Counted from the stretch's first letter, positions 62,253 through 63,908 are shown. The stretch is 64,000 nucleotides of DNA from Escherichia coli (GCF_030013595.1 NZ_CP122768.1); one strand, 5' to 3'. The notes: generated from the sequence alone by a model not told the origin. Numbers and translations: made by a program.

Positions 62253-62445
62253 TCAAAATGTGTGATGGAAATCTCATAATTTTGTCACTTTTTGTCAACG
62301 AATCTTTTTTGTGAGAAATCGCAGGAAGAGGTGTTTTTTTACTTGAGGAATATCTCAAAGCGAGCCATATTTGATGAGATCGATAGTGACTAAATCGCTT
62401 CAGTTTCACAACTAACAGAATAAAAAAACGGCAGCTCAAGGGCTG

Positions 62446-63871
62446 TAATGCCAGTCAGTTAAGCAACTTACTGGCTCTTTTTCGGGGCTGTGGGGTATTT
62501 CCAGGGCCTCTCCTTTACCACTCTCGGGAAGGCCCTTTCCCTTCTTGTCGGTAATTTCACAAGTTGTCCCATACTTGCAAGATCGCGCATCAGCTCCGGT
62601 ATACGTCCCGGTGAAGCGCCCTGCAATGTCATCAGCATTCTCATCACCATTCCGCATGATTCTGAGAAACTCAGTTGATTCGGCCAGTAACCTTTCAGAT
62701 GTTCCGCCATTTTAATCATCTGATATCTCACCAGATTATAAGCCAGTAAGACACCCCACAGCTCTTGCTCCACAAGCTCCGGTTTTTTACTTCTCAGCGT
62801 CAGCCTGCTCAGTTGCATCGTCTGTTTTATCTCCCTGTATCCCAGTTCGATTTCCCAGCGATGACTGTACAGATCCGCCATTTCTCCTCCGGGGAAGCGC
62901 ATGGCGTCCGTCATCGACGTCAGCAGATGGCAGACTTTTCCTTTGCGCGTCACGGTCAGCAGGCGGGCTGTCACTTCATTTCCCAGTCCCGGCCACTTTT
63001 TTCGTGCCTGCGGGCTGGTTTTCAGCTTCACCAGATGATCGCCTTTACCCAGTTTTCTGATCTCTTCATATTGCGCTCCCTTTCTGAGAGGTATCATCCA
63101 GTGGCGGTGTTCTCCCGCCAGGCTCCAGGCATTTAACAGTCCCAGTGAGTAATAACCTTTATCCATTAACGTCAGAGTGTTATCGCCGGTTTGTTCTATA
63201 AGTTGCTCAGCAAGCTCATTTTCGCTGTTCTTCATCGTGCCGAAGGCTGCAGCCGTCAGCAGATGGCTGGTCAGTTCCATCTGGCAGACCATTTTGACCT
63301 GCGGGTAGAGCGCCGGGTTCCCGGCATGTGTCTGGCGGGGGAAGGCTGCATCGTTCTCTGGTGTATCCGGTGTGCGCCAGAACACACCATCGATGGCCAG
63401 CAGGGTCAGGCCGCACCAGTGCGGATGCGGCGTGGCGTTATGCCAGAGCTGCGCTGTTTTCGTGAACACGCGGCGGACAGCCTCACTTCCCAGGCGCTGG
63501 CGGGCCTGAATAACGGCACTGGGAGCAACGAAGGGGCGATTGCCCGGCAGCATGATGTCCAGGCGATTCACAATCTGGTGAAGAGGTTCTTTACGCTCAA
63601 GCGCCATGCCAACAATACACCAGACCATCATTTCGAGGGGAAGACGGCGCTTGCGTAGCGTTACAGTACCTGATTCGGCAAGGCAACGAGAGATGAGTTC
63701 GGGATCGAGGTAATCCCCCAGAGAAGTCAGTGGGTTACGCAGAGAATCGTAACGGGATACCAGATCAAGAGCCTGTCCAATGTGCATAAAAAAATCCGGA
63801 AACAAGTGAGCGTTTCCGGATTCTTACACAGCCACTGGATCGGTCAACTGATCCTTAACTGATCGGCATTA
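62446..63871 (-). mobile_element. IS4 insertion sequence (1426 bp)
   Basis: Terminal inverted repeats taatgccRRtcagttaag at both ends; single transposase ORF; flanked by direct repeat cagctcaagggctg (62432..62445 and 63872..63885). Confidence 0.9.
62468..63805 (-). CDS. IS4 transposase (DDE)
   Basis: 445-aa ORF filling the element; start codon choice uncertain. Confidence 0.9.
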
Positions 63872-63908
63872 CAGCTCAAGGGCTGCCGTTTTGTGTTTCA
63901 GGTTTTTG

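Follow-up and report, generated by a model that had tools for sequence, protein, structure and literature searches.

The window analysed here, a 64,000-nucleotide stretch of Escherichia coli DNA (GCF_030013595.1, NZ_CP122768.1), ends on a set of genes whose order, bamD-raiA-pheL-pheA, is that of K-12. These features are:

63909..64000, minus strand: 3' end of bamD, ending ...IIAANSSNT*, with the stop codon at 63909-63911
61857..62198, minus strand: raiA coding sequence, with a Ribosomal_S30AE domain
61629-61754, minus strand: Phe leader, an Rfam match
60447-61607, minus strand: pheA

Two intact terminators of the hairpin and T-run type lie nearby, namely the raiA (RaiZ) terminator at 61814-61833 and the pheL attenuator at 61635-61659. 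Both are without CGG/CCG arms and neither is used by the insertion sequence described below.

Further from these genes, a lambdoid prophage (approximately 390-43400) abuts the 3' end of ssrA (tmRNA, 43396-43758, minus strand); its genes include the following:

387-1649: prophage integrase
16136-17182: prophage DNA methylase
21146-22903: prophage large terminase
29191-32424: prophage tape measure protein
34811-38209: prophage J-like tip protein
38934-42293: prophage tail fibre

Inside the prophage there is an IS3-family element (9964-11200), which holds an rve-domain open reading frame (9964-10854) and an ALIL frameshift pseudoknot (10780-10896). Rfam matches in or beside the prophage include isrK with a C4 antisense RNA (8091-8279); Rfam also reports two tRNA-like genes (17364-17517), where ARAGORN calls only tRNA-Gly(TCC) at 17443-17517, and, in the interval from the tail fibre gene to ssrA, an 'IS009' RNA (42636-42834).

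The original prediction placed a complete 1426-bp IS4 between the bamD stop codon and raiA, and this is confirmed by the termini of the element, its protein domains and its identity to the K-12 copy:

62446..63871, minus strand: complete IS4, 1426 bp, recognised from its ends, Pfam domains and K-12 comparison
62446..62463, plus strand: IRR, at the transposase C-terminal end, TAATGCCAGTCAGTTAAG
63854..63871, minus strand: IRL, at the transposase N-terminal end, TAATGCCGATCAGTTAAG
62468..63787, minus strand: IS4 transposase coding sequence, from the ATG at 63787 to the stop, 439 aa plus stop codon

The terminal inverted repeats are 18 bp long and imperfect, begin with TAATGCC, and are the sole two terminus matches in the 64-kb window, where 0.06 would be expected by chance. 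Between them the transposase is encoded in a single open reading frame, transcribed in the direction of bamD and raiA, and its product carries the Pfam domains Nterm_IS4 (3e-33) and DDE_Tnp_1 (9e-32) as well as the Y(2)R(3)E(6)K motif as defined in PMC2266710. Compared with the K-12 IS4 copy, 7 of the 1426 positions are mismatched (99.5% identity). A C-to-A change at 62469 (IS4 position 1403, in the stop codon at 62468-62470) turns TCA into TAA and ends the transposase three codons short, such that the last three residues, SVA, are lost and 439 aa stand against the 442 aa of canonical InsG. Ten IS4 copies were sampled: besides this one, eight have the full 442-aa transposase, and in the remaining copy (SZQ1) the gene is interrupted by an internal stop. 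Length and termini, open reading frame with domains and motif, near-identity to the K-12 copy and length of the target duplication all agree with the assignment to IS4.

The element is bordered by an exact target-site duplication:

62432..62445, no strand assigned: raiA-proximal copy, CAGCTCAAGGGCTG, exact repeat, present as a single copy in K-12
63872..63885, no strand assigned: bamD-proximal copy, CAGCTCAAGGGCTG, exact repeat

The two copies are identical and the sequence has no other occurrence in the window on either strand, which bears out to the base the 14-bp duplicate that had been proposed. IS4 duplications are usually quoted as 11-13 bp, and the one found here is one base beyond that range. 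The duplications at the other IS4 sites sampled measure 11, 11, 12, 12, 12 and 13 bp, while the IS4 family has been described as duplicating about 10 bp, i.e., about one helical turn (PMC2266710). Duplication length (11-14 bp) follows the spacing between the arms of the hairpins in which the element is found, and the unusual length of 14 bp at the bamD site is explained because length tracks this inter-arm distance.

When the flanks are rejoined, the gene strand reads AAACACAAAACGGCAGCCCTTGAGCTGCCGTTTTTTTATTCTG, which is the sequence of K-12 MG1655 across the hairpin. The empty site has the form TAA-N17-AAACGGCAGC-CCTTGA-GCTGCCGTTT-TTTT, with a hairpin that starts about 17 nt past the bamD stop codon, and the 265-nt reconstructed empty site is matched at 100% in other E. 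coli genomes. The fold of the rejoined site is a stem of 11 bp with U7 directly after it (-18.9 kcal/mol, z = -5.0), and 0 of 200 shuffles were as stable. By its sequence the hairpin is a canonical intrinsic (Rho-independent) terminator, at which bamD transcripts would be expected to end. In the window its two arms stand apart:

63882..63891, minus strand: 5' arm of the split bamD terminator hairpin, gene strand AAACGGCAGC, about 17 nt after the bamD stop
62422..62435, minus strand: 3' arm plus U7 of the split bamD terminator, GCTGCCGTTTTTTT, now behind a 4-bp CAGC/GCUG stem only

After the insertion, the junction on the bamD side shows no significant structure (z = -0.2). At the raiA-side junction the 4-bp CAGC/GCUG stem remains, with CCG between this stem and U7, and a terminator scan of the minus strand no longer reported this split remnant. 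The original prediction held that IS4 splits the bamD terminator and that the flanks rejoin into a hairpin followed by a T-run on the minus strand; the fold of the rejoined site agrees with this (11-bp stem, U7), neither junction keeps that structure, and the comparison with K-12 that had been proposed restores the spacer exactly and finds the terminator hairpin in K-12. It is extremely improbable that an assembly artefact or a chance resemblance underlies these observations, given that the duplication is exact, that the rejoined site is the K-12 sequence and that independent complete assemblies contain the bamD-IS4-raiA structure with 100% identity, and hundreds of others with 99.6-99.8%.

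The target specificity of the IS4 subgroup has been published (De Palmenaer et al. 2008; PMC2266710): insertion takes place in the middle of a palindrome that resembles a terminator and has conserved arms. In agreement with this, IS4 targets the tops of terminator-like hairpins made up of an A-run, CGG, 11-14 bp, CCG and a T-run, and other sampled sites read as follows:

tdk/adhE: aaaaaacgg-CCCCAGAAGGGG-ccgttt, 12 bp
downstream of glgP: aacggg-GCCAAAGGGTC-ccgttttttt, 11 bp
feaB/tynA: aaaaaa-CGGCACCTGGTG-ccgttttttt, 12 bp
gsp/glcA: aacccc-CAGCCTAGCTG-ggggtttt, 11 bp

The resident IS4 of K-12 is the only sampled copy in a poor palindrome, so that IS4 prefers such targets without being strictly bound to them. 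In 1984, Mayaux et al. reportedly described IS4 in the pheST attenuator terminator together with a pseudo-palindromic consensus, AAA-N20-TTT. The bamD site, AAA-cggCAGCTCAAGGGCTGccg-TTT, fits the consensus so quoted exactly, whereas the spacing at the other sampled IS4 sites is 15-18 nt, i.e., the rule is looser than N20. No further intact AAACGG-N9-16-CCGTTT site was present in the window.

At the tdk/adhE hairpin, a 1145-bp degenerate IS4-like relic was observed in UTI89 (locus L002, 2522-3666) and SaT040 (locus L127, 1725-2869); it is approximately 93-95% identical, has a frameshifted transposase and is bordered by the 12-bp duplication CCCCAGAAGGGG.

Species-representative genomes were also scanned for the exact 18-nt IS4 terminus; among the matches listed there were no Escherichia or Shigella sites, and the matches served as an independent test of the target pattern across genera. 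A run of four or more A residues, followed by G+C-rich sequence, lay 11-26 nt outside the IS end in 61 of 74 unique flanks among the matches listed, compared with an A-run at 5.2% of random positions at the same loci. The exact terminus occurred, among the matches listed, in Pseudoalteromonas, Pseudomonas, Shewanella, Vibrio, Methylophaga, Comamonas, Vogesella, Andreprevotia, Legionella and others. The group that shares the IS4 terminus appears as a whole to target the tops of terminators.

Two observations accompany this sample. In distant Gamma- and Betaproteobacteria the exact 18-nt terminus nearly always abuts an A-run and a G+C-rich half-hairpin, again among the matches listed. Pseudomonas sp. 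ok272 (loci L053-L103) holds dozens of MITE-like elements of approximately 145 bp with exact IS4-type 18-nt termini, e.g., at 3877-4021 of L053, and these are inserted in a REP-like palindrome with flanks ...GTAGGAGCGAGGCTTGCCC and ...CTTCGCGGGCAAGCCT.

The occupancy of the bamD-raiA hairpin was surveyed in 5426 complete E. coli genomes with three junction-specific BLAST queries, which represented the empty site, the window junction and an inverted junction. A count made with the whole region (637 genomes at 80% coverage or more) was set aside, since the IS alone makes up 79.2% of that query. The junction queries were distributed as follows:

reconstructed empty site: 5007 genomes
window junction, same orientation: 336 genomes
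constructed junction, IS inverted: 70 genomes

Together the three queries cover 5413 of the 5426 genomes, and the hairpin is occupied by IS4 in 7.5% of them (406 genomes). The occupied sites that were sampled represent at least four independent IS4 insertions:

window: same orientation, 14-bp duplication
JNQH497: same orientation, 14-bp duplication
N3: inverted, 14-bp duplication
IAI39 and UPEC132: inverted, 13-bp duplication CAGCTCAAGGCTG

A single ancient insertion, since spread by vertical inheritance or homologous recombination and with inverted copies that arose by later inversion, is a very improbable source of this distribution. Near-identical junctions are common to many of the occupied genomes, and the counts of 336 and 70 surely include clonal groups, as such a history would predict. 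However, each duplication length (13 or 14 bp) agrees with the allele of the loop found locally, to either side of the IS, and the allele of IAI39 and UPEC132, in which one G is missing, is also found as an empty site (275-nt spacers). The IS4 haplotypes at the site differ as well: the copy in JNQH497 is of another haplotype than that of the window and has 11 variants in common with the IS4 downstream of glgP in another strain. Its flank is that of IS-free K-12, with which it is identical over 1594 bp, while 80 of 2400 positions differ from the window. Finally, inversion of the IS in place would have to proceed between 18-bp imperfect repeats, for which we know of no route.

In addition to these genomes, an ENA metagenome contig (L133) has the bamD-raiA site occupied in the orientation of the window, with the transposase called as two genes; its spacer of 1717 nt, against 1716 nt, suggests a frameshifted IS4 copy. 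No mention of IS4 jointly with raiA, yfiA, bamD or yfiO was found in the literature searched. In RefSeq, hundreds of genomes already carry the annotation 'IS4-like element IS4 family transposase' between raiA and bamD.

Repeated, independent insertion is what ordinary IS4 transposition would be expected to produce. The element enters its preferred target at the apex of a hairpin whose arms consist of an A-run with CGG and of CCG with a T-run, and duplicates the 11-14 bp between the arms. The bamD terminator has the form of this target, and IS4 has accordingly entered it repeatedly, independently and in both orientations. As IS4 is target-specific, its insertion at bamD is expected behaviour at a recurrent hot spot and not chance. 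This target specificity, and a hot spot that is hit repeatedly and in either orientation, are points absent from the original prediction.

The loss of the original terminator leads to the question of where bamD transcripts would end in the window. Two features at the transposase-proximal end of IS4 bear on this:

63788..63825, minus strand: IS4-internal hairpin, candidate terminator, with arms at 63825-63811 and 63804-63790 and U7 at 63794-63788
63820..63847, minus strand: sigma-70 promoter-like site of IS4, TTGACC, 16-nt spacer and TG-extended AAGAAT, from a consensus scan

The hairpin (IS positions 47-82; 63825-63790) has a 15-bp stem that runs into U7, and this tract ends directly before the transposase ATG at 63787. 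It is stable when folded alone (z = -5.3) and is kept in a 100-nt read-through context, and in another IS4 haplotype the change T68C converts one of its G-U pairs to G-C. The terminator scan did not flag it, likely because A-U pairs extend the stem into the U-run and leave a tail too short for the rule. The promoter-like site of IS4 is the only promoter-like match in 61600-64000, and transcription from it is predicted to start near 63813, within the 5' arm of the hairpin. At the other IS end, an inward-facing terminator, relevant to the inverted copies, was considered as a candidate and rejected, its fold being no better than that of shuffles (z = -0.48).

In the orientation of the window, bamD transcripts, without their own terminator, would enter IS4 at the transposase-proximal end, and the internal hairpin with its U7 would most likely stop this read-through, in which case bamD transcripts would end about 120 nt past the stop codon. 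The transposase mRNA from the IS4 promoter would start in the 5' arm and could not form the hairpin, whereas read-through transcripts could; with a start inside the 5' arm, the transcript of the element itself escapes it. The one hairpin could both take over the termination of bamD transcripts and shield the transposase from activation by outside transcription, and it may explain how an insertion beside the essential bamD is tolerated.

On the other side of the element, 248 nt separate IS4 from the raiA ATG downstream. The candidate promoter elements of raiA are:

62276..62261, minus strand: CRP-like site TGAGATTTCCATCACA, one mismatch to consensus, centred 70 nt from the raiA ATG
62240..62235, minus strand: -10-like TATGCT, at class-II spacing from the CRP-like site
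62298 and 62256, minus strand: two TTGACA hexamers
62418..62389, minus strand: distal hexamer pair, here CTGTTA, 18-nt spacing, TTTAGT

The distal pair corresponds to CTGTCA-18-TTTAGT, predicted upstream of raiA from genomic SELEX (PMC3946193). In Salmonella, a yfiA fragment from -186 to +51 binds CRP and suffices for CRP-dependent expression, for which both CRP and the site are needed (PMC11834461). A sigma-S ChIP-seq peak reported for raiA is broad (PMC4447067); by our own conversion of coordinates it covers the stretch from about 95 to 266 nt ahead of the raiA ATG, terminator region included, and a distal raiA element close to IS4 is therefore conceivable. The proximal candidates (62235..62298) are intact at 150-210 nt from the IS, all candidates lie 27-210 nt from it, and the Shine-Dalgarno sequence of raiA is also located between IS4 and the gene. 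An alignment of 16 within-species bamD-raiA spacers had 15 scattered variable columns, too few for promoter footprinting.

The original prediction further held that the insertion displaces or disturbs the raiA promoter region and may alter raiA expression. Neither part finds support here. Judged from the DNA sequence together with the Salmonella data, every promoter candidate is located between IS4 and raiA, that is, as far as can be read from the sequence, all within 62199..62431, an arrangement that the prediction had itself named as speaking against it. Only bamD and its read-through have been moved away, and a consensus scan of 61600-64000 found no outward-facing or hybrid promoter at an IS end. 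As raiA keeps its whole promoter region between IS4 and the ATG, little or no regulatory change is expected.

We nevertheless weighed an insertion that is regulatory and selected, such that raiA or bamD expression is changed and the recurrence reflects parallel adaptive evolution, and consider it improbable. It would account for a site occupied in 7.5% of complete genomes through several independent events, and the state of the terminator is compatible with some effect: the original hairpin is destroyed, a 4-bp stem is what precedes the U-run on the raiA side, and low-level read-through of the transposase past this residual stem toward raiA, and into it, is possible. Against this, a promoter-out effect would favour one orientation and both occur, and the IS end offers no outward promoter-like site. 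The same type of hairpin is used at unrelated loci and in other genera, so target preference alone explains the recurrence. The raiA promoter candidates are intact, and the IS4 hairpin with U7 should stop read-through from bamD.

Taken together, the evidence makes it highly likely that this is an ordinary IS4 insertion in a preferred terminator target, in which the hairpin of the element would substitute for the bamD terminator and raiA would be little affected, and the insertion is probably near-neutral. The element, its preference for palindromic, terminator-like targets and the insertion itself are already on record. The status of the bamD-raiA site as a hot spot may not have been spelled out before, but it follows without surprise from what is known of the biology. 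The analysis guards against over-reading the insertion as a raiA regulatory mutation, and the hot spot could help in typing strains or in testing, on natural material, how IS4 recognises its targets.

A broader idea, which we put forward tentatively and regard as rather doubtful, is that IS4 and its relatives use intrinsic terminators as self-compensating safe havens, recognising the arms (A-run/CGG and CCG/T-run), inserting in the top of the hairpin and, in at least one orientation, bringing a replacement hairpin that also silences the transposase against read-through. If this were true, bamD-raiA would be a species-wide hot spot and a natural experiment in two orientations, and a comparison between these orientations could reveal a modest effect on the basal expression of raiA.

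With respect to known systems, the closest relative is the IS4 of K-12 (insG; IS4 family, IS4 subgroup), which shares with the window copy the length of 1426 bp, the 18-bp termini and a single DDE transposase with Nterm_IS4 and the YREK motif. The window copy is unlike it in occupying another chromosomal site and in having a transposase without the last three residues. IS10 and IS50 are reported to protect their transposase genes from outside transcription by fold-back inhibition (Mahillon and Chandler 1998, a review). IS4 resembles these elements in that the hairpin would form only in transcripts that enter from outside, its own promoter starting within the 5' arm; it differs in that U7 after the hairpin gives it the full appearance of an intrinsic terminator, beyond the masking of a ribosome-binding site. 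IS1397, ISKpn1, ISRm22 and ISPpu9 (PMC1525189) insert, like IS4, into extragenic hairpin-forming palindromes and disrupt few genes. However, their targets are REP or other palindromes that belong to a dispersed repeat family, whereas the usual target of IS4 is a unique intrinsic terminator.
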